Below are positions 1-14,426 of a stretch of DNA of 14,426 nt, piece by piece. Position numbers and translations under genes: made by a program. Position 1 is the first letter of the stretch. Every line of letters starts with the position of its first letter. Where the stretch lies: the IMG/VR virus record IMGVR_UViG_2850796239_000001; one strand, written 5' to 3'. Below the pieces are notes generated by a model. The model was not told where the DNA came from, ran no database searches, and saw only the letters and a list, made by a program, of their open reading frames with translations. The stretch is from a virus. Its lineage: Duplodnaviria; Heunggongvirae; Uroviricota; Caudoviricetes.

Positions 1-240
1 TTATCCGTCCTGATTTTGCATCCACTCCACCACAAAATCAGCCAGCCCCCCAACATCATTAATATCCAGTAACGCGACATCAAGATTAAGTGACACATCA
101 CTGGCTACAGCAATAACATGTCTGTCTATCACTAATTCTTCCGGTCGATGTCCGGCTCCATCGCGAAACAGCACAATCTTTGCGATCTCTTCATGCTTAA
201 ACCCTTCGACCAGAATCAAATCCAGCTTTGAGGTATCCAT
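1..240 (-). CDS. mobB: MobB (molybdopterin-guanine dinucleotide biosynthesis adapter protein), C-terminal fragment; gene interrupted by prophage insertion
   Basis: Minus-strand ORF ending at TAA (rc of 1..3). Translation MDTSKLDLILVEGFKHEEIAKIVLFRDGAGHRPEELVIDRHVIAVASDV... matches the C-terminal part of enterobacterial MobB as I recall it. In-frame similarity continues upstream of the Met to ~264 (..DLHFLASR), then ends at stop codons (265..267, 271..273 on the minus frame). Confidence 0.8.
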   Translation of the reverse strand: MDTSKLDLILVEGFKHEEIAKIVLFRDGAGHRPEELVIDRHVIAVASDVSLNLDVALLDINDVGGLADFVVEWMQNQDG

Positions 241-282
241 TCGACTTGCGAGAAAATGTAGATCCTATGACTAGGTAATTTA

Positions 283-414
283 TTCAAGATAACCGGGAAG
301 AGATTAAAAAAGACGGGATTTGGTTGGATTCAATAACTTAGCTACTAGTTGTATTCAAGATAAAATGGGCAAGGGCCGTTTAGTTTGTTCAGAACAATAA
401 AACATTCAAGATAA
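283..414 (+). repeat. Three direct copies of TTCAAGATAA near the prophage left end; candidate transposase end-binding sites (attL L1-L3 analogues)
   Basis: Exact 10-mer at 283..292, 354..363 and 405..414 in AT-rich non-coding DNA between the prophage end and the repressor gene. A related GATTCAATAA lies at 327..336, and AACCGGGAAG at 291..300 resembles AACCGGGAGG in the Mu left end. Confidence 0.4.
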
Positions 415-508
415 AGCGTCTTGTTTATTTTGACCTTTTAAAGGCTTTTAAAACTAGCTTATCAGAAGTTGTAGAAATGGACCAAGTAAGTTAAGCACAG
501 CTAGCTGA

Positions 509-1015
509 TTATATGCTAACTGCCTTGTTGGTTAGTTGGATGAGATCGGCCTCAGCTTCATTTCCCGCCAAAATCTCTCTAACCTTTTGTTCTGACAGGT
601 TATTTAGGCTTAAAGCAGCTAATCTTCGAATACCCGTTAAACTAATCAACTCTTGGTTTTCTTGGCTGCAAAATTCGAGCAACTTTTCAACACCTTTTCG
701 TTTGAGCGTATGGATCACGATCTCTTTTTCTTGTTCGCTTAGAGAATCCATTATTTTCATTAACTCATTAGCTTTTGAGGCCTTGTTTGATGGTTTGGTT
801 GCTGTTTGCAACTGACCGCTAACAATTGCAGCGACGTGTTCAGGCAAGTCTTGCAATCGGTACGCAAAGGCCCTTCCTCTAACTCCGGGTGTTGTAACTG
901 AACGTTTTTCCCACCCCTCATTTCTTGCTCGCTTATGGAGTCCTGCAAGGGATGTGGGTAAACCGCCAACACCGAGGAGTTCACTAGCAGGCACCCATTC
1001 TTGATCTTGGATCAT
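509..1015 (-). CDS. Mu c-like repressor
   Basis: 168-aa ORF divergent from ner/A. Start ATG (rc of 1013..1015) is preceded by GGGAGG (rc of ~1022..1027). N-terminal motif WVPASELLGVGGLPTSLAGLHKRARNEGWEKR is shared with the transposase N-terminus (WVPMTELASFCGLPSSLAGLHKKAKKESWQTR), as in Mu where c and MuA share a DNA-binding domain. Confidence 0.75.
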   Translation of the reverse strand: MIQDQEWVPASELLGVGGLPTSLAGLHKRARNEGWEKRSVTTPGVRGRAFAYRLQDLPEHVAAIVSGQLQTATKPSNKASKANELMKIMDSLSEQEKEIVIHTLKRKGVEKLLEFCSQENQELISLTGIRRLAALSLNNLSEQKVREILAGNEAEADLIQLTNKAVSI

Positions 1016-1146
1016 ATCAACCTCCCAATGAAATTAACCAGTTGATATTTACTTAGTTAATATCTAATATTCCAACCACACACAGTTGAGTAACTCTCGT
1101 GAGTTACACGCATGAGTCATAGAGTTTGCCATAGAAAGCGCGTGGG
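1016..1146. promoter_or_regulatory. Divergent early promoter/operator region between repressor and ner
   Basis: Intergenic position matches the Mu operator region. Nested inverted repeats TTAAC(1034..1038)/GTTAA(1056..1060) and GATAT(1044..1048)/ATATC(1060..1064); dyad GTAACTC(1090..1096)-tcgt-GAGTTAC(1101..1107). No promoter assigned. Confidence 0.4.
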
Positions 1147-1401
1147 GTGTTAATCGTGATTTTAGGTGAGGATTGGGATTCCGCTGATATCAAGGCTGAG
1201 CTTGAGAAGCGTGGTACTAATTTGTCTCGCTTATCGAGAGAAAATAATTTAAGGCCAAGAACGTTAGGTAATACTTTGCGAGTCCCCTATTTAAAGGGAG
1301 AAGGGATTATTGCGCAAGCTATTGGAGTTCAACCAGAGGTTATTTGGCCAACCAGATATGAACGTCGCTCACGGAGGAAAAATGTGGGTTCCAATGACTG
1401 A
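1147..1401 (+). CDS. ner: Ner-like DNA-binding protein (Ner/Nlp family)
   Basis: Translation ..EDWDSADIKAELEKRGTNLSRLSRENNLRPRTLGNTLRVPYLKGEGIIAQAIGVQPEVIWPTRY.. aligns with Mu Ner (..RDWHRADVIAGLKKRKLSLSALSRQ..PKGEQIIANALETKPEVIWPSRY). Start is uncertain (GTG 1147 or GTG 1156). Stop TGA at 1399..1401 overlaps the transposase start. Confidence 0.85.
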   Translation: MLIVILGEDWDSADIKAELEKRGTNLSRLSRENNLRPRTLGNTLRVPYLKGEGIIAQAIGVQPEVIWPTRYERRSRRKNVGSND

Positions 1402-2056
1402 ATTAGCTTCATTTTGTGGATTACCTAGTTCACTTGCGGGTTTGCATAAGAAAGCTAAAAAAGAGTCATGGCAGACACGTCTTAAAGCTGGGGTTAAGGG
1501 ACGTGTTGTTGAGTGCGAAATAAACTCTTTACCTATTGTTATTCAAAAGGCACTGCGTGAACGCTATGTGGCACAGTTGGTGGCTACAGAGAACAATGTT
1601 TCTGAAGTGAAAGCTGTTACCAGAAAAACACGCAATCCTGATGCTGTCCAGGCAATCGAAGCATATCGCGGTTCGCCACAACTGATGGAAGAACGCCTGA
1701 ATGCGCTGACCGAAAACCAGCGTCGGGTATCTGAAGCAAGGGCTGCGCTGGTGGTGGAAGTGCTGAAGCTGGAAAGCGCCGGTAACCTCGGGCGACTGAA
1801 AGCCATTAACTTTCTTGTTGAAAAAGCCCGTAAAGGTGAGCTGCCGGAGCGCCTGCAACAGGCCGCAGTTAACGCCAATGCAAAACGTGGCGCTAATCGT
1901 ACTATCAGCCGCGATCCACTTTACCAGTGGGTTCTGAAATACAACCAGTCGCAGAACGCCGCCGAACGGCTGCTGTTACTGGCACCGGGAAAACGCGACG
2001 AAATAAAACCGGAAGAAATCAGCTGGCTGCCTGAATTTCTGGCGCAGTATCGCTAG
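1382..2056 (+). CDS. MuA-like transposase, N-terminal DNA-binding portion, ending at an in-frame TAG
   Basis: ATG at 1382 is preceded by GGAGG (1374..1378). The ORF-track start at 1310 overlaps ner and lacks an RBS. Ends at TAG 2054..2056, in the same frame as the next ORF. Confidence 0.8.
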   Translation: MWVPMTELASFCGLPSSLAGLHKKAKKESWQTRLKAGVKGRVVECEINSLPIVIQKALRERYVAQLVATENNVSEVKAVTRKTRNPDAVQAIEAYRGSPQLMEERLNALTENQRRVSEARAALVVEVLKLESAGNLGRLKAINFLVEKARKGELPERLQQAAVNANAKRGANRTISRDPLYQWVLKYNQSQNAAERLLLLAPGKRDEIKPEEISWLPEFLAQYR

Positions 2057-3466
2057 GTGAACGGCAGACCCATGTCAGAAGCCTACGAGGATTTTGTCGC
2101 AGAATGGCAGCGTCGCCATGCGGACGAACCGTACATGCTGGAGGTGATGCCTTCCTATGATGTTGTCCGGTATGCCATGAAAAAACTGCCGGAAGTGGTG
2201 AAACAAAAAGGGCGCGTTACCGGCAGTGAATACCGTCAGCTTGAAGGATTCACCCGCCGCGACTGGACAGCTATGCCGGTGAATTATGTCTGGATTGGTG
2301 ACGGTCACGGTATGAAGCTGAAATGTGCGCATCCGATCCACGGGCGTCCATTCTCACCGGAAGTCACGTTTGTGATCGATGGTGGAACACGGTTTGTTGT
2401 TGGCTGGAGTCTTGACCTTGCCGAAAACGTGTTCGCCGTTGCCGGTGCGATACAGCACGGCATTCGCAACCACGGAAAACCGTTCCTGTATTACTCGGAT
2501 AACGGTTCCGGTGAAACGGCTGACATGCTGGACAAAGAGGTCGTGGGTATTCTGCCACGCCTGGGGATTAAACACCCTACCGGTATTGCCGGTAATCCAC
2601 AGGGACGCGGCATTATTGAACGCCTGAACCGGACACTGCCGATGCGTATAGCCAGGAGGTATCGCACCTATTTTGGCAAGGGTGCTGACCGGGAATCGTT
2701 GCGTGTACTTAACCGTGATCTGCGTTCAGCGTTTAACTCCCTGCAACAGGACAAGCCTCTGAACGACCGCCAGAAAGCGGCAATGCGCGAGCTGCCATCG
2801 TGGGCGGAGCTTATTGAGGCTATTCGTGAAGGCGTGGAATGGTACAACAACCGCCCGCATTCTGAGCTGCCGATGAAACCGAACGGACGGCATTACAGCC
2901 CGGCAGAGTTCAGAAAAAAACGCCTGGCAGAAGAAGACACCGAAATTGAGTGGCTGAGTGATCTTGAGCTGCGCGACATGTTCCGCCCAATGGTGGAACG
3001 ACCGGTAAGACGCTGCGAAATTCAGTGGCTGAACAATATTTACTACGCGCCGGAGTTGCGTGACGAACACGGTCGCAAAGTGCTTATCAGTTATGACATT
3101 CATGACGCCGAGCGAATTACGGTACGTCGCAAGGACGGCAGCTTTATCTGTGAGGCGATATGGAACGGCAATAAACGCGCAGCCTTTGCTGTCAGTGCTG
3201 AATATCACAAACAACAGCAGCGTATTAAAGGAATGCGCAAACGCGCTGAGGAAAAAATTCGTGATGCTGAAGATGAAGGTATTCAGATTCTGGAACACAA
3301 ACAGGCTGAACCCTGGCTGAGTAATGTTTATCGCCCGGTTGGTAATGTGGTGGCAGTTCAGCAACCGGAATATGAAGAAGAGCATGACGAAGAATTTGAA
3401 CGCGATTTCCGGCTGGGGATGCAAAAACTTTTTGCCATGCAGGAAGAAGATGATCCGCTGGCCTGA
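2057..3466 (+). CDS. MuA-like transposase, DDE catalytic core and C-terminal portion
   Basis: Same frame as 1382..2056 (both coordinates are 2 mod 3), directly after the TAG. Contains DDE-type motifs VWIGDGHGMK, YYSDNGSGE and AGNPQGRGIIER typical of Mu/retroviral-integrase-fold transposases. Combined length is ~695 codons, close to MuA (663 aa). Confidence 0.85.
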   Translation: MNGRPMSEAYEDFVAEWQRRHADEPYMLEVMPSYDVVRYAMKKLPEVVKQKGRVTGSEYRQLEGFTRRDWTAMPVNYVWIGDGHGMKLKCAHPIHGRPFSPEVTFVIDGGTRFVVGWSLDLAENVFAVAGAIQHGIRNHGKPFLYYSDNGSGETADMLDKEVVGILPRLGIKHPTGIAGNPQGRGIIERLNRTLPMRIARRYRTYFGKGADRESLRVLNRDLRSAFNSLQQDKPLNDRQKAAMRELPSWAELIEAIREGVEWYNNRPHSELPMKPNGRHYSPAEFRKKRLAEEDTEIEWLSDLELRDMFRPMVERPVRRCEIQWLNNIYYAPELRDEHGRKVLISYDIHDAERITVRRKDGSFICEAIWNGNKRAAFAVSAEYHKQQQRIKGMRKRAEEKIRDAEDEGIQILEHKQAEPWLSNVYRPVGNVVAVQQPEYEEEHDEEFERDFRLGMQKLFAMQEEDDPLA

Positions 3467-3474
3467 ATAAAAAA

Positions 3475-3496
3475 ACAGTCCGCGGGAACGGACTGT
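3475..3496 (+). other. Stem-loop in the A-B intergenic region
   Basis: ACAGTCCG(3475..3482)-cgggaa-CGGACTGT(3489..3496), followed by TTAAATAAA rather than a U-run; not a canonical terminator. Confidence 0.25.
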
Positions 3497-3541
3497 TAAA
3501 TAAAGGAAACAAAGCTGATTTGAAATAACCGAGGAAATACT

Positions 3542-4108
3542 ATGACTGATATTGATGATGTTTTCAACACTATTAACGCTTTGATTAACGAGGGCGACAA
3601 GTCTCAGGAAGATATTGCTGATGAAGCCGGAATGTCTCCGGCAACACTCTCGGCTCTGCGTAAAGGAGAGTACAACGGTAATGTCGAAGGTATGCATGAC
3701 AAATTACAGAAATGGTATCAGGTCTGGCAGAAGGGACAGAACTTGTCAGGTACCCCTGGTGTTGTGAAGACCCAGACATTTTGTGATTTGCATGAGCTGT
3801 TTAAAACAGTGCGCTCACTCGGGATTATCAGTGTCGTTGTTGGCGTACCGGGTGTCGGAAAAACCTTTGCTGCCCGGGAATATTGTCGCAGGACAGCTAA
3901 TGCCTGGATGGTGACTCTTGCTCCGGCACATTCGAGCGTAACGGAATGCCTCCTTGAAATAGCATATGCGCTGGAAATTAATAATCCGGGAAGAAATAAG
4001 GGGAATGTAACCCGCGCCATTCGCAGAAAACTGGGTGGTGGTAAAGAAACCAGTGGCCGTGTTAACCCCCTTCTGATTATTGATGAAGCTGAGGTGTACT
4101 GGCAATAG
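3542..4108 (+). CDS. MuB-like transposition ATPase, truncated after the Walker B motif by IS insertion
   Basis: ATG 3542 with GAGGA (3531..3535). Walker A GVPGVGKT and Walker B LLIIDEA. Aligns with Mu B (..GNPGVGKTEAAREY.. LVIIDEAD..). The last codons (EVYWQ, stop) are encoded by the IS terminus starting at 4090. The ORF is 188 aa against ~312 aa for Mu B. Confidence 0.85.
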   Translation: MTDIDDVFNTINALINEGDKSQEDIADEAGMSPATLSALRKGEYNGNVEGMHDKLQKWYQVWQKGQNLSGTPGVVKTQTFCDLHELFKTVRSLGIISVVVGVPGVGKTFAAREYCRRTANAWMVTLAPAHSSVTECLLEIAYALEINNPGRNKGNVTRAIRRKLGGGKETSGRVNPLLIIDEAEVYWQ

Positions 4109-4132
4109 CGGACACTACCATTTGTTCTTTTT

Positions 4133-4819
4133 TTAAGCAGCCATCTGATGATATTTTTCCCTGAAGGCTGCCGGGGAGATATTCCCCAGACGAGAGTGAC
4201 GACGCTGACGATTGTAGAAAATCTCAATGTATTCCCGTATTACTGAGATGGCTTCATCCCGGTTATTAAAACGATAGTGGCTCAGGCTCTCATTTTTCAG
4301 CGTTCCCCAGAAGCTTTCCATCGGAGCGTTGTCGTAACAGTTACCTTTACGCGACATTGATGTTTTCAGACCAAACTGCTCCTGTATGACCCGGTAATCG
4401 TATGCGCAGTACTGTGAACCTCGATCAGAGTGGTGGATTAGCCCGGCAGGTGGGCGCTGGCTCCTGAGCGCCATAAACAGGGCTTTACCTGTCAGCTCTT
4501 TTGTCATGCGCTCTCCCATGGCGTAGCCGACAATTTCGCACGTATAAACATCTTTGATGCCAGCGAGGTACAACCATCCCTCCTGTGTGGCAACATACGT
4601 CAGGTCCGCCACCCAGACCTGATTTGGTGCTGTAGGAGCGAACGTCTGGTTCAGCAGATTTGGCGCAACTGGCAGATTGTGGTTCGGGTTCGTAGTCGCT
4701 CTGAACTTGCGTTTCTGCTTACAGCGTAGCCTTAGCTCCTTACGAAGACGTGCCAGTCGGTCACGACCAACGATGATGCCATTCTCTGCCAGCTCCGTCT
4801 GGAGCCGCCCGGGTTCCAT
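4133..4819 (-). CDS. IS3-family transposase OrfB, C-terminal catalytic part (frame-disrupted copy)
   Basis: 228-aa ORF containing the IS3-group DDE core (..WVADLTYV.., HHSDRGSQY, SMSRKGNCYDNAPMESFWGTLKNE). It is out of frame with the orfB N-terminal segment at 4761..4952. Confidence 0.85.
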   Translation of the reverse strand: MEPGRLQTELAENGIIVGRDRLARLRKELRLRCKQKRKFRATTNPNHNLPVAPNLLNQTFAPTAPNQVWVADLTYVATQEGWLYLAGIKDVYTCEIVGYAMGERMTKELTGKALFMALRSQRPPAGLIHHSDRGSQYCAYDYRVIQEQFGLKTSMSRKGNCYDNAPMESFWGTLKNESLSHYRFNNRDEAISVIREYIEIFYNRQRRHSRLGNISPAAFREKYHQMAA

Positions 4820-4952
4820 ATGTTTCGCGAGTGCGGATATGTGCCACCTTAATCTCCAGTTTTAGCCGCTCATCACTTTGTTTTCTGTCTGAGGGTTCAT
4901 GCTGTACCCAGTTGTAATAACCGCTCCTGGATACACCAAATACCTGACACAT
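4761..4952 (-). CDS. IS3-family OrfB N-terminal segment, separated from the rest of orfB by a frame change
   Basis: MCQVFGVSRSGYYNWVQHEPSDRKQSDERLKLEIKVAHIRTRETYGT then out-of-frame tail. It lies in the -1 frame relative to orfA, as expected for programmed frameshifting, but +1 relative to 4133..4819. Confidence 0.5.
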   Translation of the reverse strand: MCQVFGVSRSGYYNWVQHEPSDRKQSDERLKLEIKVAHIRTRETYGTRAAPDGAGREWHHRWS

Positions 4953-4987
4953 CGCTTCAATGGGAAATTGTTGTCGCCATTGTTCGA

Positions 4988-5250
4988 TTAACGCGTATTT
5001 TTCAGCGACTCCTGTGCAAAATACGCTGTTGCTTTTTTTAATATATCTCGCTCAAGGCGAGCTTCATTTAACGCCTTACGCAGTTGCAGAATTTCAGATT
5101 CCAGTTCAGCCACCGTGCGGGAACCAGGAGTACCGAGCCCTTTTCTGGCGGCGGTAACCCATTGTCCTAAAGTGCCTTCAGGAAGGGATAATCGGGAAGC
5201 GCCTTCACTGATCGAAAGTTGATTTTCAAGAACCGTTCTGACAGCTTCGG
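4988..5250 (-). pseudogene. IS3-family orfA, 3' portion; the 5' portion (codons 1-15) lies at 8006..8052 on the other side of the IS66-family insertion
   Basis: Manual minus-strand translation ..VRTVLENQLSISEGASRLSLPEGTLGQWVTAARKG..LERDILKKATAYFAQESLKNTR* continues the MSRKTQRYSKEFKAEA fragment. A-run slippery site (A7 at rc of ~5033..5039) lies near the orfA end. Confidence 0.75.
5243..5250. repeat. 8-bp target-site duplication (GCTTCGGC), left copy, flanking the IS66-family element
   Basis: Identical 8-mer at 5243..5250 and 8006..8013 immediately outside the element's terminal inverted repeats. Confidence 0.9.
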
Positions 5251-5283
5251 CGTAAGCGCCCCGAGAAGTACGTAGCGTAAGGA

Positions 5284-6885
5284 TTATTTTACAGACGAGA
5301 AGTTCCAGGGCAGCAGTTCATGCACTTGGTTCGACGGCCAGTCATTGAGCTTCTCGATCACTTCGCGCAACCAGTCCTCCGGCTCCACTTCGTTCTGTTT
5401 GCAGGTGACCAGCAGACTGTAGATGATCGCCGCACTTTCTCCTCCCTTGTCTGAGCCGAAAAAGAGATAATTTTTTCTTCCAACCGCCACCGATCGTAAC
5501 GCGTTTTCACCGATGTTGTTGTCTATTTCCACCCAGCCGTCACGACAGAACTCGTTCAGCGCATTCCAGTGATTCAGGATATAGTCGAACGCCTTCGCCA
5601 TCTCCGCATGTTTCGACAGCGTTTTCCTCTGCAATTGTATCCAGTCGTACAACGACTGCATCAACTGGACGCTTCTGGCTTTTCTGACTGCAAGCCGTTC
5701 CTCTGCCGGACTGCCACGTATCTCCGCTTCTATGTCGTATAACTCTGCTATCCGTCTGAGCGCTTCCTGAGTCATTTCTGTCGGACGGCGCACATCCTCG
5801 TCATGGATTTTTCGGCGGGCGTGGGCCAGGCACCCGGCTTCCTTCACCCGGCCCGTTTCGTACAGTACGTTATAACCTGCATAGGCATCAGCCTGCAGTA
5901 CGCCCTGATACTTTGCCAGGTGGAGCTGCGGATGTTCTCCTTTGCGATCTGCCGAATACGCGAACCAGACGGCTGCCGGCAGGGATGAACCCGCATTACG
6001 ATCATCCCTGACGTATACCCACAGACGACCCGTTTTCGTCTTTCCGTTCCCCGGGGCCAGTACTTTCACCGGAGTGTCATCTGCGTGCACCTTTCCTGCC
6101 TCCAGAACATAGTCATTCAGCGCTATATACAGAGGACGGAGTTTGTCTGCCATTTCTGATACCCAGCGCACCATGGTATTACGGCTCAGCTCCACGCCCT
6201 GTCGCGCGTATATTTCTGACTGGCGATATAAAGGGATATGTTCCATATATTTGCTGACCAGGATCCGTGCAAGTAACCCTGCACTGGCATAACCGCGTTC
6301 GATCGGTTTAGGGGGAAGTGGTGCCTGAACGATGACATCACACCGGCTACAGGCCAGTTTGGGACGTATGGTTTCGATAACTTTAAAGGCGGTATTAATG
6401 ATATCCAGTTGCTCTGAGATTGTTTCCCCCATTTCTTTCAGAACACCTCCACAGGCCGGGCAACTGGTTTCAGCAGGCAGAAGGCGATGTGTCTCCCGGG
6501 GAAGTTCTGCCGGCAGCGGTTTTCGTGAAGATTTTCGTCCCGGGGATTCAGGCTTACTGGCGATCGGGTTTTCTGACGGGGGACTGGTGTCAGGTGAATC
6601 TGTGACTGACGATGCATCTTCCAGAAGATTTCTGGCTGTGTTCAGCCGGTTTTCCAGTTCCGACAGTCGTTTTTCTGCCTGTCGGATCTGATTTTCAAGC
6701 TTATGACGCTTTTTCTCTGAACTCTGGCCGAACAACATACGACGCAACCTGTCGAGTTGCGCTTTCAGCCGTTCAATTTTCTGCTCATAGCCCGCGACCT
6801 GACAGGCATACTGTCGAAGCCGACTCTGTTGCTTACGCAACATGGCTTTAAGCAGCTCAATATCATCGGGGAGTTCATTGTTCAT
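5284..6885 (-). CDS. tnpC: IS66-family transposase TnpC
   Basis: 533-aa ORF with N-terminal coiled-coil/leucine-zipper-like region, a CxxC...CxxC zinc-finger region (SCPACGG ... CSRCD) and a large catalytic domain typical of IS66 Orf3. Confidence 0.9.
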
Positions 6886-6904
6886 TCCCTTGTTTTATCA
6901 CGGG

Positions 6905-7252
6905 TTATATCCGGATGCCAGGCCGTTCTGTCCGTTTGGGATGTTGCCACGCGATCCCCTCCAGTAGCATGGATAACTGAGCTGGCGTCAGGTGCACTTT
7001 CCCTTCCCGGGTCACCGGCCAGACGAAGCGGCCCCGTTCCAGGCGTTTGGCGAACAGGCATAACCCGTCACGATCGGCCCACAGTATTTTCACCATTTTG
7101 CCACTGCGGCCCCGGAAGACGAAGATATGCCCGGAGAACGGGTCATCTTTCAGCGTGTTCTGCACCTTCGAAGCCAGGCCATTGAAGCCACAACGCATAT
7201 CTGTGATGCCAGCGATGATCCAGATTTTGGTACCGGTCGGCAGCGTTATCAT
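6905..7252 (-). CDS. tnpB: IS66-family TnpB (Orf2)
   Basis: 115-aa ORF (MITLPTGTKIWIIAGITDMRCGFNGLA...) typical of IS66 Orf2; its start overlaps the tnpA stop as ATGA at 7249..7252. Confidence 0.9.
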   Translation of the reverse strand: MITLPTGTKIWIIAGITDMRCGFNGLASKVQNTLKDDPFSGHIFVFRGRSGKMVKILWADRDGLCLFAKRLERGRFVWPVTREGKVHLTPAQLSMLLEGIAWQHPKRTERPGIRI

Positions 7253-7923
7253 CGGATACCCCCTTTCATTTCGCGGATTAGCGCCCGTAACAGTTCCGGA
7301 GTGAGAGGGTCAAACAGTTTTACCACACCTGATTTAAGATGCAGCTCGCACCGTGGGACGTTTCCGGGAGCCCCCTCAGGGCGCTCATCATGCTTGTTAC
7401 GCCAGAAGGGATTTGTAACTGGTCTGGTCGGCTCCGGCGTATCAGTCAGTGCCACCGGGACAGGCATGCATTCCTGTATGTCATCATCGCTCAGTAAGCC
7501 GTCCTCGTACTGGCTTTTCCATTTAAACAGCAGGTTATTATTGATATCGTGTTCTCTGGCGATCCGGGCAACAACAGCCCCAGGCTGTAACGCCTGCTTA
7601 GCCAGACGGACCTTAAATTCACGGCTATAGCTGGTTCGCCGTTCTTTTCGCCATGAGCCTTCTCTGATTTGAGGCTCTGTTAATTCCTTCTTTCTGTTGG
7701 CATAAAGGATGGCGTCAAGTTGAGCGAATGAAACTGAATCGGGCAATGGCCATGCGATACCGGATGCAAGAAATCGCTGAAAAAGCGTATGTATTGTGGA
7801 ATGACTGAGACCCAGACGCTGAGCGATGGCCCGGATGGTCAGTTTATCTTCAAATCTTAAACGCAGGGCATCAGGCAAATAAGAACGGAAGCAGGGAATA
7901 TCTTTTGTTGTCTGGGAATTCAT
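7249..7923 (-). CDS. tnpA: IS66-family TnpA (Orf1) with N-terminal helix-turn-helix extension
   Basis: 224-aa ORF with HTH-like segment LTIRAIAQRLGLSHSTIHTLFQRF and the IS66 Orf1-like motif RRTSYSREFKVRLAKQALQPGAVVARIAREHDINNNLLFKWKSQY. Confidence 0.85.
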   Translation of the reverse strand: MNSQTTKDIPCFRSYLPDALRLRFEDKLTIRAIAQRLGLSHSTIHTLFQRFLASGIAWPLPDSVSFAQLDAILYANRKKELTEPQIREGSWRKERRTSYSREFKVRLAKQALQPGAVVARIAREHDINNNLLFKWKSQYEDGLLSDDDIQECMPVPVALTDTPEPTRPVTNPFWRNKHDERPEGAPGNVPRCELHLKSGVVKLFDPLTPELLRALIREMKGGIR

Positions 7924-8005
7924 CGTTCGTGTCCATCAATATAGATGGGCGCGATTGTTGCCAGACAGGACAATTTTCACAAGACGTCGCTGATGGGGCG
8001 CTTAC

Positions 8006-8013
8006 GCTTCGGC
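8006..8013. repeat. 8-bp target-site duplication (GCTTCGGC), right copy
   Basis: Identical to 5243..5250; it lies within IS3-family orfA codons K-A-E-A (rc GCCGAAGC). Confidence 0.9.
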
Positions 8014-8212
8014 TTTGAACTCTTTAGAGTAACGTTGGGTTTTTCTGCTCATTATTAGCTCCTTCTGATGCCATTCTATTTCAGGAAGGAGTGTCCGTTA
8101 AACTCAGGCTACCTCATCATTCCTGACCGTATTGCCTTTCTGGTGGTGTTAACCCGCCCGGACAAAACCACACTCAGAATCGAAATCACCCGTCGATGGG
8201 AGGCCACCATTA

Positions 8213-9289
8213 ATGCCGTATGAAATCCCCACGCTGGGCAAACTGATTGCCGACGGCGAAAAAGATATTGCGTATGAACTCGGCCTGCAAAAGCTGCCGC
8301 CTGTCAGTGTTGAGCAGGCGCTGAACGTGTCATTCAGCAGTCAGGTCCGGGATTTATACGACCATCAGAGCTGGATTAAGGACCAGATAATCCCGTCCAC
8401 CACGTCTGATGATGAAACCATTATCAAAACAGCAAAGTATGAAGGGGTTATCCGCAAGCAGGCCACCTTTGCCAGCGGGCGGGTGACCTTCACCAGTCAG
8501 TCCCCCCTTCCGGCAGAAACCCGGATGCAGTCCGACACGAACCAGGTGTATCAGGTACTCACGTCCGGCGAGGTGCAGGACGGCGAGGTCACCGTCATCG
8601 TGCAGGCTGAAGAAGCCGGTGTGGCGGGCAATCTTGCTGCCGGTGCCGTACTCACCCTGCTGTCCCCGCTGCCCGGAACGGCCAGCACAGGCGCGGTGGC
8701 TGAAGGTGGCATCACCGGTGGCGCAGACACTGAATCCATCGCAGCGCTGCTGGACCGTCTGCTGTATGTGCGCCGCAATCCACCGACAGGCGGCGCGTTG
8801 CATGACTACGTGATATGGGCGCGTGAAGTGCCGGGCGTCAGCCGCGCGTGGGCGTGGGATGCATGGCACGGCCCCGGCACGGTCGGGCTGGCATGGCTTT
8901 ATGATGACCGGGAAAACATCGTGCCAACCCGCGAAGACCTGAAGACAATGGAGCAGTATCTGTTCTGCCACAAACACCCGGCCACGGGCGTGATGGTGGG
9001 TAAACCGGGCGGCATTGAGGTCTGGCCGGTACAGGTCAGGCTGAAGAAAGTCAGCATATCCATCCGTCTGACACCGGACAGCCTGGCGAACAGGAGCGCC
9101 GTCCGGGCAAACCTGACCGCGTTACAGAAGACACTGGCACCCGGTCAGACGCTGCCGGTGTCCTCGCTGCGCACGGCCATCGGTATGACGTCCGGCATCA
9201 CGGATTACTTCCTTAACATCGGGGAGGACACCACCAGTGATGTGGATGAGCTTATCACCATCGGGGAGGTGACATGGCTCACAGCGTGA
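8213..9289 (+). CDS. Baseplate J-like protein (Mu gp47 family)
   Basis: 358-aa ORF; ATG 8213 preceded by GGGAGG (8198..8203) with a TAATG overlap to an upstream frame. Size, composition and position before gp48/S/U fit the Baseplate_J family; the call is from memory of the family, not an alignment. Confidence 0.8.
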   Translation: MPYEIPTLGKLIADGEKDIAYELGLQKLPPVSVEQALNVSFSSQVRDLYDHQSWIKDQIIPSTTSDDETIIKTAKYEGVIRKQATFASGRVTFTSQSPLPAETRMQSDTNQVYQVLTSGEVQDGEVTVIVQAEEAGVAGNLAAGAVLTLLSPLPGTASTGAVAEGGITGGADTESIAALLDRLLYVRRNPPTGGALHDYVIWAREVPGVSRAWAWDAWHGPGTVGLAWLYDDRENIVPTREDLKTMEQYLFCHKHPATGVMVGKPGGIEVWPVQVRLKKVSISIRLTPDSLANRSAVRANLTALQKTLAPGQTLPVSSLRTAIGMTSGITDYFLNIGEDTTSDVDELITIGEVTWLTA

Positions 9290-9858
9290 CGGAATGGCTG
9301 GCCGCACTGCAACAGGTCATGCCACGGGGTAAGGCATGGCCGCGTGATAACGACGCGGATTTAAACCGCTTTTTAAGGGCGCTTGCAGAACGTTTAAACC
9401 GCACTGAATACGACGCCTCGCGTCTGCATGTGGAGATGCGACCGGAAACCACGCTCCGGCTGCTGCCGGAGTGGGAGCAGTATCTGGCGCTGCCGGAATG
9501 CGGAATTGCCCCCACCACCAGGGAAGCCCGCCGCCGTGCCGTGGTGGAGAAATACCGTCGCAGGGGCGGGCTGGCAACCTGGCAGACTGAAGCCGCAGCA
9601 GCGGCGCTGGGCTTCACCATTAAGGTGACAGCCGTTCTGCCGCACCACTGTCTGCGCGACTGCATGTATCCGCTGCATCCGGCGCGGTATCGCTGGATGC
9701 TGAAAGTGAACGTCCCGGGTAAAGATGCCGGGCGGTTTACCTGTATTGATGGCGTCATGACACCATTAATCAGCGAACGCACCCGTGAGCTGGAATGCCT
9801 GCTGAAGCATTACCGGCTGGCGGGCACGGAATATGAATATTATTACACCGGAGAATAA
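9274..9858 (+). CDS. Mu gp48-like tail/baseplate protein (DUF2313 family)
   Basis: 194-aa ORF overlapping the J-like gene by 16 nt; its position between baseplate J and the tail fibre matches Mu gene 48. Confidence 0.7.
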   Translation: MAHSVTEWLAALQQVMPRGKAWPRDNDADLNRFLRALAERLNRTEYDASRLHVEMRPETTLRLLPEWEQYLALPECGIAPTTREARRRAVVEKYRRRGGLATWQTEAAAAALGFTIKVTAVLPHHCLRDCMYPLHPARYRWMLKVNVPGKDAGRFTCIDGVMTPLISERTRELECLLKHYRLAGTEYEYYYTGE

Positions 9859-9861
9859 TTT

Positions 9862-10959
9862 ATGTTTTATGTGGATAACCCGACGGGTGTGCCGGTAATG
9901 CCACCTGTCGCGGCTGAATTAAGCAAAACAACGCTTTATTTCACCGAAGGCGGGAACGGTATTCCGCCCACGTATCCGGGGCCGGACTGGTTTAATATTA
10001 TTCAGTCTGAATTACTGGAAATACTCCGGCAGGCAAATATCAAACCGGATAAAAACACAACCGACCAGATTATGACAGCGCTGAAAAAACTGTTTATTAC
10101 GAACAGTGGTTCAGCCGGAGCTATTGCCGGATTAACCGGTCAGAATAATATGTTCCCGTATTTTACCGGCAAAGACACAATGGCATTAACGCCGCTCAGT
10201 GCTTTTGTTCGCGGTATTCTCGGAAAAAACAGCGCCAGCGATTTTGTTAAAGACATCGGAGCAGGCCGTGCTTTCAGTGGTTCTGTAAGTATTGGTGGCG
10301 ACAGTGGAGCCTGGACGACGGCGCAGTTTATTGACTGGCTGGATTCACAGGGAGCATTTAACCATTCTTACTGGATGTGCAAAGGCTCCTGGGCTTATGC
10401 GGGCAATAAAATCATCACCGATACCGGCTGCGGCAATATTCAGTTGGCCGGTGCAGTTGTTGAGGTAATGGGCGTCAAATCAGCCATGACCATCAGGGTG
10501 ACCACACCAACAACGGCCACGAACGGCACGACAAGCTCACAGTTCACCTACATCAACCACGGAGACGCCTACTCTCCCGGATGGCGACGTGAGTACAATA
10601 CCAGAAACAAACCAACAGCATCGGACGTGGGGGCACTCCCCGCAAACGGTAATGCGGTCTCAGCAACCAGACTCCAGACTGCCCGCAGGATTAACAATGT
10701 GCTGTTTGATGGCCCCCGCGATATCACCATCAACACCACCGAGCCCGGCGCTGTGCGTAATTTCCAGTACACCAATGAGGTGTTTTACAACCCGGGCAGT
10801 ACCACAATTACCTGGAGGTTTCGCGCACCTTCTGGCTGCCAGTTGTCAGGCATTTATGTCCAGGATACGGGAAAAAATACAGCAGACAATATCGGTGGTG
10901 TGTATTACAAACAGGCTCAGATTTATATCAATGGCGCATGGCGCTCTGTATCCGGTTAA
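9862..10959 (+). CDS. Tail fibre protein (Mu S-like)
   Basis: ATG 9862 with GGAG upstream. N-terminus MFYVDNPTGVPVMPP... resembles the Mu/P2-type tail-fibre N-terminal domain as I recall it; followed directly by a Tfa/U-type assembly gene. Confidence 0.75.
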   Translation: MFYVDNPTGVPVMPPVAAELSKTTLYFTEGGNGIPPTYPGPDWFNIIQSELLEILRQANIKPDKNTTDQIMTALKKLFITNSGSAGAIAGLTGQNNMFPYFTGKDTMALTPLSAFVRGILGKNSASDFVKDIGAGRAFSGSVSIGGDSGAWTTAQFIDWLDSQGAFNHSYWMCKGSWAYAGNKIITDTGCGNIQLAGAVVEVMGVKSAMTIRVTTPTTATNGTTSSQFTYINHGDAYSPGWRREYNTRNKPTASDVGALPANGNAVSATRLQTARRINNVLFDGPRDITINTTEPGAVRNFQYTNEVFYNPGSTTITWRFRAPSGCQLSGIYVQDTGKNTADNIGGVYYKQAQIYINGAWRSVSG

Positions 10960-10973
10960 TTAAGGAGAAAATA

Positions 10974-11504
10974 ATGGAACTCAGAAATGTTACGCGTTAT
11001 TACCCTGAAGGTATGCCTTATGGTGAAGGCATTCAGTATTTCCGCAGTGAAGACGGGCAGGACTTTTATGAATCCCTGGATAAATTCACGAAGAAATACA
11101 AGCTGTGCACGCATCCTGAAACCGGCGTGATTTATTCGATGGCGGAAGACGTATCCCGTCTTTATCCCGTTGGTTTTACCATTGTGGAAGTGGATGAACT
11201 GCCGGAAGGCTTTGGCATTGAAGTCTGCTGGTATTATAAAAACGGCGAAGTTCTTCCTGTTCCTGTTGATTATTTGCGGCTGGCAGAAAAACAGCGCCAG
11301 AGCCTGCTGAATGAAGCAAGGGACATCACCTCCGACTGGAAAACCGAGCTGGAGCTGGGCACCATCAGCGACGATGACAAAGCCCGTCTTACACAGTGGA
11401 TGGCGTATATCAGGGAGGTAAAGACACTGGATTTAAGCACCGTTACTGACGAAGCCTCCTTTAATTCCATCAACTGGCCGGAGCGTCCCGATGCCGCAGC
11501 TTAA
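10974..11504 (+). CDS. Tail fibre assembly protein (Mu U / Tfa family)
   Basis: ATG 10974 with TAAGGAG (10960..10966); the ORF-track start at 10938 is upstream of the RBS. C-terminal motif ..GTISDDDKARLTQWMAYIREVKTLDLS.. matches the conserved Tfa/U motif (Mu U ..GIISDENKQKLTEWMLYAQKV..). Confidence 0.85.
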   Translation: MELRNVTRYYPEGMPYGEGIQYFRSEDGQDFYESLDKFTKKYKLCTHPETGVIYSMAEDVSRLYPVGFTIVEVDELPEGFGIEVCWYYKNGEVLPVPVDYLRLAEKQRQSLLNEARDITSDWKTELELGTISDDDKARLTQWMAYIREVKTLDLSTVTDEASFNSINWPERPDAAA

Positions 11505-12543
11505 AGGTGTGATAAAAACGCCCACGGGAGAACCGCTGGGCGGCGCAACCATTACACTGACCTCCCTGCACAATCGTGCAGGGATCCTGAAAAGTGTTTT
11601 CAGCCACGTCACCACACAGAGTGGAGAGTACGACTTCCCTGTTCTGCCGGGCGTGTACAGCGTTCGTCTGACACAGAGTGCACAGTGCCTTTCAGAAATC
11701 GGTGTCATCCGCGTTTATGAAGATTCAACGGACGGTTCGCTGAATGATTTTCTGGGCGCAACTGATATTGACCTGCGTCCGGAATCCCTGAAGAAATTCG
11801 AAGAGCTGGCGCAACAGGCGCAGCAGAGCGCCGGGGCCGCAGCCGGAAACGCACAGCAGACGGCGCAGGATGTGGCGGCAGCCGCAACGGCCCGTGATGA
11901 TGCACAACGTTTTGCGGAGAAAGCCCGACAGGATGCAACCGTCACAGCTGAGGACAGAAAGGCCACTGCGGAAGATGTGACAAGCACAGGAGCAAATGCA
12001 GCCGCAGCCGGACAGAGCGCACAGGATGCCGCAGGTTATGCCCGCGCAGCAGAACAGGCCAAAAATGACATTGATGCTGCGCTGACCGGCACTCTGAAAA
12101 TGGCTAACCATCTGTCAGAAATCGCAGCAGCAGGCGAAAAGGCACAACAGAAGTCCCGGGATAATCTGAGGCTGAAAAGTGCGGCCACGATGGAAGCACA
12201 GAGCGACATTTACGACCGGACAAAAGGCCGTCTGGCGATACCCGGCGCATTCGGCTTTGGGTGTGCTTTTCTGCCTGAAGATGTTATCCGTTTTGACACT
12301 AAGAGTGATTTCCTGGCCTGGGTAAGGAATGCGCTGCCAGGTGAATATTCCGTTGCTGGCCCCTACGGCATCATCATACCCGACACACGGTTTGAAGGGG
12401 GGCTCAGCATCCGGTGGACTGATGCACGCCCTGAGACAAGGGAACCGCGGTACAGAGCCAAATCCCTTACTTTTTACGGCATTAACGGCCCCATTTATCA
12501 CACCCGCTACTGCTACTGGCCCATATCCAGACTGACTGGGTGA
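11491..12543 (+). CDS. Side tail fibre protein (lambda Stf-like N-terminal domain with Ala/Gln-rich shaft)
   Basis: N-terminus ..KGVIKTPTGEPLGGATITLTS...GVYSVRLTQ...IRVYEDSTDGSLNDFLGA.. parallels the lambda Stf N-terminus (..SGVLKDGTGKPVQNCTIQLKA...GQYSVILQ...ITVYEDSQPGTLNDFLCA..). Followed by an AQQ/AAA-rich repeat region and the ..LSEIAAAGEKAQQKSRDNLRL.. motif common in fibres. Confidence 0.75.
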   Translation: MPQLKGVIKTPTGEPLGGATITLTSLHNRAGILKSVFSHVTTQSGEYDFPVLPGVYSVRLTQSAQCLSEIGVIRVYEDSTDGSLNDFLGATDIDLRPESLKKFEELAQQAQQSAGAAAGNAQQTAQDVAAAATARDDAQRFAEKARQDATVTAEDRKATAEDVTSTGANAAAAGQSAQDAAGYARAAEQAKNDIDAALTGTLKMANHLSEIAAAGEKAQQKSRDNLRLKSAATMEAQSDIYDRTKGRLAIPGAFGFGCAFLPEDVIRFDTKSDFLAWVRNALPGEYSVAGPYGIIIPDTRFEGGLSIRWTDARPETREPRYRAKSLTFYGINGPIYHTRYCYWPISRLTG

Positions 12544-12893
12544 AAATAAATATAGCCACAGAAGATATTATTTACAGAATCGTGGCGAGCTCTGTCCGCA
12601 ACAGATGGGGAGACCCTGACATTGGCGGGCTGATTATTGCTGCGTACCAGGGAAAAGCTGACGGTGATAAAGACATCAGACTTGTCAGGGGGCGGTCATA
12701 CAGAGGCTCACGACTGGGACCGGTGGGGATTTCAGCGCCCTGTACTCCCACCGGAACGCATATAGTATACCCACAATATTTCATTACGGGATGTTCAGAG
12801 CATTCATTACCGGGGTCATATTGCGCCCTGTCCGGGGTGCCGGATACATATGTCTCTGGCGCAATGCTTGGGCTTTTTATTCGCACATCGTGA
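12540..12893 (+). CDS. Hypothetical ORF of uncertain reality (possible fibre distal fragment or accessory gene)
   Basis: GTG-initiated 117-codon ORF overlapping the Stf stop (GTGA) and the next gene's start region. No recognisable family; the C-terminal half has atypical composition. Confidence 0.25.
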   Translation: MKINIATEDIIYRIVASSVRNRWGDPDIGGLIIAAYQGKADGDKDIRLVRGRSYRGSRLGPVGISAPCTPTGTHIVYPQYFITGCSEHSLPGSYCALSGVPDTYVSGAMLGLFIRTS

Positions 12894-12903
12894 GGAATGC
12901 ACT

Positions 12904-13470
12904 GTGGAAATTAAAAAAATCATTAATCCCCGTTATACCGAAAGTGGCGCAGTAGACTGTGACGTTTTTTTTGACGACAGGGACCAGGCAGTCCCCTACA
13001 CAGCCACCGCTGATGATGTCGCTCCGACGGGTCAGCAAATCTGGCAGGAACTGCAAAGCGGCAAATGGGGTGAGATAGCCCCATTCACTGTGACACCAGA
13101 AATGCTGGAAGCGGCCAGAGAGGCCAGACGTCAGGAAATTGAAGCATGGCGCACAGAACAGGAGGCGAAGCCGTTCACGTTTGAATGGAACGGTCGTATC
13201 TGGAATGCTGGCCCCGACTCACTGGGCCGCCTGTCCCCGGTAGTCATGCTGGCAAAATCTGTCACAGCACAAACACATATGGCGTGGAGCGATGCGGATA
13301 ATCAGCAGGTGCAGCTGACGACGCAGGAACTTGAGGAACTGGCCACAGCGATGATGCAGGCCATTGTTGAGCGCAACGATGAGATTTATCGCTGTCAGCG
13401 GGAGATGAAAGAACAACTTTCTCTGTTGCCCACACTGGACGAGGTGAGAGCGTTCAGACCAGGCGATTAA
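12904..13470 (+). CDS. Putative tail fibre assembly/chaperone protein (second, non-U type)
   Basis: ORF 12850..13470 in the track; preferred start GTG 12904 with GAGGAA (12892..12897). Position immediately after a fibre gene; the C-terminal region resembles prophage tail-fibre chaperone-like proteins, but this is a weak call from memory. Confidence 0.5.
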   Translation: MEIKKIINPRYTESGAVDCDVFFDDRDQAVPYTATADDVAPTGQQIWQELQSGKWGEIAPFTVTPEMLEAAREARRQEIEAWRTEQEAKPFTFEWNGRIWNAGPDSLGRLSPVVMLAKSVTAQTHMAWSDADNQQVQLTTQELEELATAMMQAIVERNDEIYRCQREMKEQLSLLPTLDEVRAFRPGD

Positions 13471-13492
13471 ATAATCAGTTTGTATAGTTTAT

Positions 13493-13520
13493 GACGATCG
13501 ATAGCATCATATCGATCGTC
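13493..13520. promoter_or_regulatory. Perfect palindrome with two GATC (Dam) sites upstream of com-mom; candidate methylation-sensitive repressor-binding region
   Basis: GACGATCGATA-gcatca-TATCGATCGTC (11-nt arms); GATC at 13496..13499 and 13514..13517. In Mu, a GATC cluster upstream of Pmom mediates Dam/OxyR control. Confidence 0.5.
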
Positions 13521-13545
13521 GGTTTGCATCAAGTGTGATTAAATA

Positions 13546-13589
13546 CCCCCAGCCCTCCGGGCAGCGATATCCTGTTATTACACTGGGGG
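13546..13589. promoter_or_regulatory. GC-rich dyad CCCCCAG-N30-CTGGGGG just upstream of com; candidate late-activator (Mu C-type) site or RNA structure
   Basis: CCCCCAG at 13546..13552 and its reverse complement CTGGGGG at 13583..13589; the right arm overlaps the com Shine-Dalgarno (GGGGGA, 5 nt before ATG 13595). Confidence 0.35.
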
Positions 13590-13594
13590 AAGTT

Positions 13595-13780
13595 ATGGAT
13601 TCTGTTCGTTGTAAAAATTGCAATAAATTGCTGTTTAAAGGAGGTTGTAAGCATATAGAAATCAAATGTCCTCGCTGTAAACGTTACATTGTCATATCGA
13701 GTGCCCGGGAGCATCCCACGGAGCTGTGTTGTGGGAAAAGAGAAGAAATCACACATTCTGACAAAACCCTGCGTTATTGA
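13595..13780 (+). CDS. com: Com, zinc-finger translational activator of mom
   Basis: ATG 13595 within ORF 13535..13780. Translation [61 protein letters not shown] (61 aa) is near-collinear with Mu Com ([34 protein letters not shown]...HSDETVRY), with the four-Cys zinc finger conserved. Confidence 0.9.
13714..13736 (+). promoter_or_regulatory. Predicted mRNA stem-loop sequestering the mom SD and GTG start (translation-inhibitory structure, target of Com)
   Basis: TCCCAC(13714..13719)-GGAGCTGTGTT-GTGGGA(13731..13736); the loop contains GGAG and the 3' arm contains GTG 13731. This mirrors the Com-dependent mechanism known for Mu mom. Confidence 0.45.
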
Positions 13781-14426
13781 GTATGAAGGCCGGATTGTCG
13801 GCTATGGTTCAAGGGAGCTGCGCGTTGAAACCATATCCTGCTGGCTGGCCCGCACAATCATTCAGACAAAGCATTATTCCCGCCGTTTTGTGAATAACTC
13901 CTGGTTGCATCTGGGCGTATTCAGTGGACGTGATCTGGTTGGTGTTCTTCAGTGGGGATATGCCCTTAACCCCAACTCAGGGCGTCGCGTTGTGCTTGAA
14001 ACGGATAACCGGGGCTATATGGAACTGAACCGCATGTGGCTACACGACGACATGCCCCGCAACTCTGAATCACGGGCCATCAGCTACGCGCTGAAAACCA
14101 TCAGGTTACTGTATCCGTCAGTGGAGTGGGTTCAGTCCTTTGCAGACGAACGTTGCGGGCGTGCAGGTGTTGTGTATCAGGCGTCAAATTTTGATTTTAT
14201 TGGCAGCCATGAAAGCACATTCTACGAACTGGACGGTGAGTGGTATCACGAGATAACGATGAATGCGATTAATCGTGGAGGGAAGCGCGGCGAATATTTA
14301 CGAGCGAATAAGGAGCGGGCCGTGGCGCACAAATTTAATCAATATCGTTACATCAGGTTCCTGAACAAGCGCGCAAAAAAGCGACTAAACACTAAGCTAT
14401 TCAGGATTCAGCCTTACCCGAAGTGA
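13731..14426 (+). CDS. mom: Mom DNA modification protein (adenine modification, anti-restriction)
   Basis: Long ORF (track 13689..14426) overlapping the 3' end of com as in Mu, ending at TGA 14424..14426. Preferred start GTG 13731 (GGAG 8 nt upstream, gives 231 aa). The sequence ..[51 protein letters not shown].. is Mom-like from memory and position. Confidence 0.85.

Follow-up and report, generated by a model that had tools for sequence, protein, structure and literature searches.

A decayed Mu-like prophage within mobB of the Shigella boydii ATCC 9905 lineage, with TA...TA termini and a 4-bp target duplication

Two halves of mobB and the genes between them

The stretch of DNA analysed here (the window; 14,426 nucleotides of IMG/VR record IMGVR_UViG_2850796239_000001) begins within the host gene mobB and runs through a Mu-like prophage to the stop codon of mom (Table 1). 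The minus-strand frame at 1-264, which reads DLHFLASRMDTSKLDLILVEGFKHEEIAKIVLFRDGAGHRPEELVIDRHVIAVASDVSLNLDVALLDINDVGGLADFVVEWMQNQDG in full and runs from DLHFLASRMDTSKLD to EWMQNQDG, matches the Pfam MobB family (E=1.4e-10) and aligns with residues 84-170 of the solved Escherichia coli MobB (1P9N/1NP6; E=4.5e-48). As the original prediction, made from the letters of the window, had stated, this frame then stops abruptly, at in-frame stop codons at 265-267, 271-273 and 280-282. An intact mobB that matches nucleotides 1-265 (99.6% at best) is found in 5426 of 5426 complete E. coli genomes, each with a contiguous 528-nt gene across the insertion site. In all matches listed the similarity stops at 265, placing the true breakpoint at 265/266, one base at most from the ~264/265 first proposed. 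Beyond it, intact mobB passes from ...GATCC into AGCTCTTC, whereas the window passes from ...GATCC into TATGACTAGG. In a three-way alignment, intact mobB continues from ...GTAGATCC into AGCTCTTCTTCG and the window from the same ...GTAGATCC into TATGACTAGGTAATTTATTCAAG, the latter being common to the window and a prophage that E. coli RM9088 carries at the 3' end of nrfA. The DNA from 266 on is foreign by comparison with genomes that have an intact mobB, which bears out the view that a transposable phage interrupts the gene.

The missing part of mobB lies at the other end of the element. We read the right flank from locus L003 of the source genome, CP026875.1 (GCA_002950355.1), where a window coordinate equals the L003 coordinate + 2849. 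There, 126 bp past the window, the mom-proximal prophage end adjoins the 5' half of mobB, as had been anticipated, followed by mobA, a DUF1040/yihD-like gene, an APH-family kinase/rdoA-like gene, dsbA and polA. The match to E. coli mobB picks up again at L003 11704, and the resulting fragment encodes 89 residues ending ...PDEEELD, with the closing TAA codon supplied by the phage terminus. The gene is thereby split into an 89-codon 5' part, which retains the P-loop, and an 87-codon 3' part 14.3 kb away, now lacking both promoter and start codon. Inside this 3' part, an ATG at 238-240 (minus strand) opens a 79-aa ORF that gene callers annotate. The full-length P-loop GTP-binding protein of ~170-175 aa expected downstream of mobA is no longer encoded, and mobB in the source genome is a pseudogene. 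By contrast with its operon partner, mobA, which lies upstream, is intact in CP026875.1.

An identical 79-aa MobB C-terminal ORF also occurs on contigs of other samples, in which mobB is broken in the absence of any phage, by point nonsense changes or by gaps of 1, 5, 34 or 38 nt. These lesions suggest either recurrent loss of mobB or errors of low-coverage assemblies. Phage excision was considered as their cause and rejected: none carries a +4 ATCC scar, which marks them as independent lesions.

Within the prophage, the predicted divergent module of repressor, ner and transposase genes is present, with the expected Pfam domains. By analogy with Mu, operators and the early promoter would be expected between c and ner; the one promoter-like site there (1042-1070, plus strand) is not above chance, and promoter and terminator scans of positions 1-1500 gave nothing above chance. 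Full-length frames remain for c, ner, com and mom. The second tail-fibre gene encodes 350 aa, compared with 468 aa in the intact relative of E. coli FDAARGOS_943, and the aligned region 11491-12893 differs from that relative by 4 nt in length, so that the shortening is probably a frameshift. Neither the window nor this relative holds a site-specific integrase, and neither holds a gin invertase or an inverted S'/U' segment.

Table 1. Features of the window and of the adjoining right flank, with the segments that align differently to related prophages.
Feature	Position	Strand	Remarks
3' part of mobB	1-265	-	nt 264-528 of the 528-nt gene; codons 89-175, stop at 1-3
Target-site duplication ATCC, left copy	262-265		empty versus occupied site
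Prophage left end (attL-type)	266-508	+	terminus 5'-TATGACTAGG; non-coding, 33.7% G+C
Putative transposase-binding site L1	281-292	+	core TTCAAGATAA
Putative transposase-binding site L2	352-363	+	core TTCAAGATAA
Putative transposase-binding site L3	403-414	+	core TTCAAGATAA
c-type repressor	509-1015	-	168 aa, apparently intact; Pfam HTH_Tnp_Mu_1; length as in RM9088
Divergent regulatory region, c to ner	1016-1146		from gene arrangement
ner-type regulator	1147-1401	+	84 aa; Pfam HTH_35, E=9e-27
A transposase pseudogene	1382-3466	+	694 codons; Pfam HTH_Tnp_Mu_1 and Mu-transpos_C
B, AAA+ target-capture ATPase, truncated	3542-4092	+	Pfam AAA_22; ~184/316 codons left
IS block	4093-8113	-	in place of 24.3 kb of phage genes
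5'-truncated IS3-family transposase gene	4133-4819	-	within IS block
IS66-family tnpC	5284-6885	-	within IS block
IS66-family tnpB	6905-7252	-	within IS block
IS66-family tnpA	7249-7923	-	within IS block
Surviving late genes	8114-13470	+	
Baseplate J	8213-9289	+	
gp48-like	9274-9858	+	
Tail fibre	9862-10959	+	
Tail-fibre assembly	10974-11504	+	
Second, shortened tail-fibre gene	11491-12543	+	
DUF4376 protein	12850-13470	+	
com	about 13595-13780	+	Pfam Zn_ribbon_Com
mom	13731-14426	+	Pfam Mom, E=1.3e-75; window ends at mom stop
Target-site duplication ATCC, right copy	14553-14556 (window-equivalent)		L003 11704-11707; outside window
Segment: left end	266-414		79% identical to FDAARGOS_943
Segment: immunity region	415-1545		differs from FDAARGOS_943; 94-95% identical to RM9088
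Segment: A and B	1546-4092		99.5% identical to FDAARGOS_943
Segment: IS block	4093-8113		in place of 24,289 bp of FDAARGOS_943 phage genes
Segment: late genes	8114-10246		99.2% identical to FDAARGOS_943
Segment between two late-gene matches	10247-11427		no FDAARGOS_943 match
Segment: late genes	11428-14426		97.5% identical to FDAARGOS_943

End sites, termini and target duplication

The DNA that follows the mobB fragment had been described as AT-rich, non-coding and repeat-bearing, and it is all three: the left-end stretch is far poorer in G+C than the window as a whole (51.2%), positions 266-508 hold no ORF of at least 40 aa, and three exact copies of TTCAAGATAA start at 283, 354 and 405, all on the plus strand and with no other exact copy in the window. 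These cores lie 18-27, 89-98 and 140-149 nt from the left terminus. At the right end, three inverted copies of the core (R1, TTTAAGATAG; R2 and R3, TTCAAGATAA) lie 18-27, 40-49 and 75-84 nt inside the right terminus, with L1 and R1 equidistant from their own termini. In Mu, L1 stands apart from L2 and L3, and R1, R2 and R3 are close together; the six putative end sites of the element mirror this L1-L3/R1-R3 layout. R1 (L003 11677-11686, window-equivalent 14526-14535, outside the window) reads TTTAAGATAG here and TTCAAGATAG in five other copies, the substituted position being A in this element and G in all five, including a second copy in the same genome. This is the site closest to the cleaved right end; the other five sites and both termini are intact.

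The empty site in intact mobB reads ...GTAGATCCAGCTC..., and the occupied site reads ...GATCC, then TATGAC, on the left and ...GCTTTA, then ATCCAGCTC, on the right. The 126 bp of phage DNA after mom end ...TTTTGCGCGCTTTA, after which mobB resumes as ATCCAGCTCTTCTTCG...; the right terminus, ...GCGCGCTTTA-3', falls at window-equivalent 14552, so that the element extends from 266 to that position, 14,287 bp in all. Because the empty site is known, the 4-bp duplication at mobB is unambiguous, and ATCC at 262-265 takes the place of the 5-bp repeat that had been forecast at ~263-267.

We compared this insertion with those in E. coli RM9088, FDAARGOS_943, VL40 and STEC346. All five elements run from 5'-TATGACTAGG to GCGCGCTTTA-3', with TA...TA termini, and each is flanked by its own 4-bp direct repeat: ATCC (mobB), TAAG (RM9088), GAAA (FDAARGOS_943), TTCA (VL40) and ATTC (STEC346). 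A 5-bp duplication was tried and rejected, a shift of the border by one base to either side producing a mismatch at five of five sites; under that reading, moreover, every right copy would have to begin with A, or every left copy to finish with T. The same procedure, applied as a control to the canonical Mu prophage of E. coli W, returned TG...CA termini and a 5-bp repeat, GCCGC. For an Stx1 phage with a Mu-like insert (LC727895.1), the depositors annotated a 4-bp "duplication due to insertion", AGAG, next to TG...TA ends. Elsewhere, elements of the same phage type occupy sites that include nrfA, an alanine racemase gene, a gene for a MolR-family regulator and a T6SS Vgr gene, a spread over different sites in other strains that agrees with the near-random, mutagenic integration originally proposed.

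According to a 2021 survey, duplications are 5 bp long for Mu and 6 bp for B3, and all described Mu- and B3-like elements had TG-CA ends until TA-TA prophages were found in Leptospira (PMC8705779). Instead of TG...CA with 5 bp (Mu) or 6 bp (B3), the present element has TA...TA and 4 bp in all five insertions, which sets it outside genus-level Mu while leaving it within the broader kind of transposable phages. The Leptospira prophages share the non-canonical TA dinucleotide at both ends, but they have a B3/Tn552-type transposase, 6-bp duplications and an unrelated host, in contrast to the MuA-type transposase and 4 bp found here. In the part of the literature that we searched, including papers on SfMu and on Yersinia Mu-like phages, we found no published account of a 4-bp duplication or of such ends; the same search returned no experimental evidence of transposition for this lineage, and the Yersinia phage paper gives neither ends nor duplications. 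The 4-bp/TA signature is a real, if minor, departure from the Mu paradigm.

Relation to Mu, relatives and decay of the element

By sequence, the element is only distantly related to Mu. In BLASTP comparisons, the A protein of the intact relative shares 25% identity with MuA across the catalytic and C-terminal part (E=1e-10) and its B protein 41% with MuB (E=4e-78), and the c repressor shares 26% with that of Mu; a phmmer search of the C-terminal part of A against solved structures did not reach MuA, only weak retroviral integrase cores. Like Mu, the element has a c/ner/A/B module at its left end, late genes that end in tail fibre, com and mom, and many insertion sites inside genes with a short duplication, and its three putative transposase sites per end are inverted, with L1 apart from L2-L3. 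It differs in the low identity of A, c and B, in its termini and duplication length (TG...CA and 5 bp in Mu), in the size of the intact relative (34.7 kb, compared with 36.7 kb for Mu) and in lacking the Mu-type gin invertase and inverted S'/U' segment.

Several features of a saltovirus are nevertheless present: a MuA-family DDE transposase gene beside that of a MuB-type AAA+ ATPase (both inactivated in the window copy), a repressor gene divergent from a ner-type regulator at the left end, inverted repeats at both ends that would bind transposase (3+3 putative TTCAAGATAA-type sites, identified by sequence), and, with no integrase, insertion at five unrelated sites, each with a 4-bp duplication. 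The description of this DNA as a Mu-like prophage therefore stands in so far as it denotes a transposable, Mu-like element; it does not convey that what lies in mobB is a deleted, transposition-dead remnant, distant from Mu.

The most informative comparison is with the prophage of FDAARGOS_943, in which A and B are intact and the Mu gene order is complete (c, ner, A, B, gam, mor, lysis, terminase, portal, head, tail, baseplate, tail fibres, com, mom). Saltoviruses have genomes of about 35-39 kb with Mu-type head and tail modules; at 34.7 kb, this relative shows the whole module order, and the window copy, at 14.3 kb, retains only baseplate, tail-fibre, com and mom genes from the late region. 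The four E. coli prophages have the same termini, end sites and 4-bp duplications as the window copy but are ~35-43 kb long and lie at other loci. Among isolated phages, the nearest are Yersinia phages vB_YpM_5 and vB_YpM_6, with an A gene 90% identical at the DNA level; they have been described with an invertible G segment (PMC10434027). The Mu-like inserts of Stx phages LC727895.1 and LC727881.1 have an A gene 80% identical (DNA), and the former differs in its TG...TA ends and in having other end repeats.

Alignment along the window further reveals a mosaic immunity region, made up of c, ner and the 5' end of A, that is RM9088-like and unrelated to its counterpart in FDAARGOS_943, a pattern in the aligned sequences that indicates exchange of the immunity module within the lineage. 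A second related Mu-like prophage is present in CP026875.1 (1760093-1780713), beside a type VI secretion cluster (IcmF/VasJ/PAAR); its DUF4376 protein is identical to that of the window copy and its right end near-identical, and certain late genes look shorter in it (baseplate J of 254 aa, compared with 358 aa). In E. coli STEC388 (NZ_CP041425.1), both phage ends abut fliH but lie ~0.9 Mb apart (about 1.94 Mb and 2.85 Mb), an arrangement that suggests a large chromosomal inversion between prophage copies.

Several lesions distinguish the window copy from its intact relatives. In A, a TAG at 2054-2056 replaces the CAG (Gln) present in both intact relatives and cuts the protein after 224 of 694 residues, leaving the DDE core and Mu-transpos_C downstream of the stop. 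Because a GTG directly follows the amber codon, gene callers annotate two ORFs in A, of 224 aa and 464-469 aa. The similarity of B to the intact relative ends at 4092, which is the boundary of the deletion and of the IS block; alignment to FDAARGOS_943 shows that the block replaces 24,289 bp containing the semi-essential early region and the lysis, head and most tail genes. Since a search for IS66 terminal inverted repeats gave no convincing recovery, the IS boundaries are set only by the loss of similarity to the intact phage. The element is an immobile 14.3-kb remnant, capable by itself of neither transposition nor particle formation.

Origin of the insertion and its significance

Neither mobB-phage junction occurs in the 5426 complete E. 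coli genomes. Over its first 3240 bases the window shows 100% identity to a contig of GCA_000193915.2, an assembly that a published table lists as Shigella boydii ATCC 9905, and over its first 2473 bases the same identity to a contig built from run DRR015921; on this evidence, the window belongs to the S. boydii ATCC 9905 lineage. An artefact of assembly is ruled out, since three independent assemblies agree exactly at the left junction.

The best explanation of these data, to which we assign a probability of about 0.93, is that, in an ancestor of the S. boydii ATCC 9905 lineage, a Mu-like phage inserted into mobB and then decayed in place. Judging by the footprint that remains, strand transfer by a DDE transposase would have joined the phage to codons 88/89 of mobB: its two 3' ends would have attacked target strands 4 nt apart, and repair of the gaps would have duplicated ATCC, so that the c/left end came to abut the 3' half of mobB and the mom/right end the 5' half. 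Because the 4-bp duplication and the TA...TA ends differ from the Mu paradigm, this mechanism is extrapolated from a relative that shares only 25% identity in A. The prophage later decayed in place: A gained its amber codon, a deletion associated with the IS3-family and IS66-family elements removed part of B and 24.3 kb in all, with early, lysis, head and tail genes, and R1 acquired its point change, probably in steps after the insertion.

Other accounts of the locus fare poorly. One would have mobB natively short in this strain, with positions 241-508 as ordinary downstream or intergenic DNA beside a prophage. Although the self-contained 79-aa ORF that starts at 238-240, and that gene callers accept, invites such a reading, a contiguous 528-nt gene in every complete E. 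coli genome compared, the recovery of the missing 5' half across the element with a 4-bp overlap, and the occurrence of the DNA from 266 on in prophages at unrelated sites make it so improbable as to be negligible; comparison with genomes that have an intact mobB showed no case in which 241-300 is native DNA after a shorter gene. Scarcely more credible is a junction produced by chimeric assembly or by recombination between two prophage copies rather than by primary insertion into mobB. The genome does contain another related prophage whose right end is near-identical, and the STEC388 ends beside fliH suggest that inversions of this sort occur, but the left junction is the same in three independent assemblies, and the flanks are the halves of a single gene, which point the same way and share exactly 4 bp, whereas exchange or inversion involving two copies would move the halves apart or leave mismatched duplications. 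Matching duplications and collinear halves of mobB therefore argue for one simple insertion, notwithstanding possible recombination with the second copy.

That the element might still be functional, either as a live prophage or as a natural mini-Mu that the second copy's transposase could move in trans, with c, ner, com and mom kept for the benefit of the host (immunity, DNA modification), is unlikely, if less so than the two preceding accounts. The termini are both intact, as are five of the six end sites, the four genes have full-length frames, and a related copy resides in the same genome; yet the element's own A is interrupted by an amber codon and its B truncated, the R1 core carries a substitution absent from five other copies, and some late genes of the second prophage also look shortened. 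Insertion of a Mu-like phage followed by decay in place thus remains the preferred reading.

The consequence for the host is probably small. In E. coli, mobB is dispensable for the synthesis of molybdopterin guanine dinucleotide. Because mobB mutants still make this cofactor, loss of mobB is probably near-neutral, with a mild phenotype at most, and because mobA is intact as well, the insertion as a whole is likely to matter little to the cell. The phage-free breaks of mobB on contigs of other samples fit this view, although assembly errors could account for part of them. It does explain why mobB is annotated as two fragments, and it identifies 14.3 kb of this genome as a dead, IS-riddled transposable prophage, typical of Shigella genome decay. 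The junction, absent from the complete E. coli genomes and identical in S. boydii ATCC 9905, serves as a marker of the lineage.

Disruption of a gene by a transposable phage is an ordinary, routine event, and the wider interest of this locus lies only in the 4-bp/TA footprint. We think it likely that the lineage constitutes a natural MuA-family system with a 4-nt rather than a 5-nt target stagger and with 3'-TA termini in place of the near-universal 3'-CA. If so, it would allow a direct comparison with Mu on what sets the stagger and the terminal-dinucleotide specificity in DDE transposases, and tools that seek 5- or 6-bp scars and TG/CA ends would misplace the borders of such prophages.
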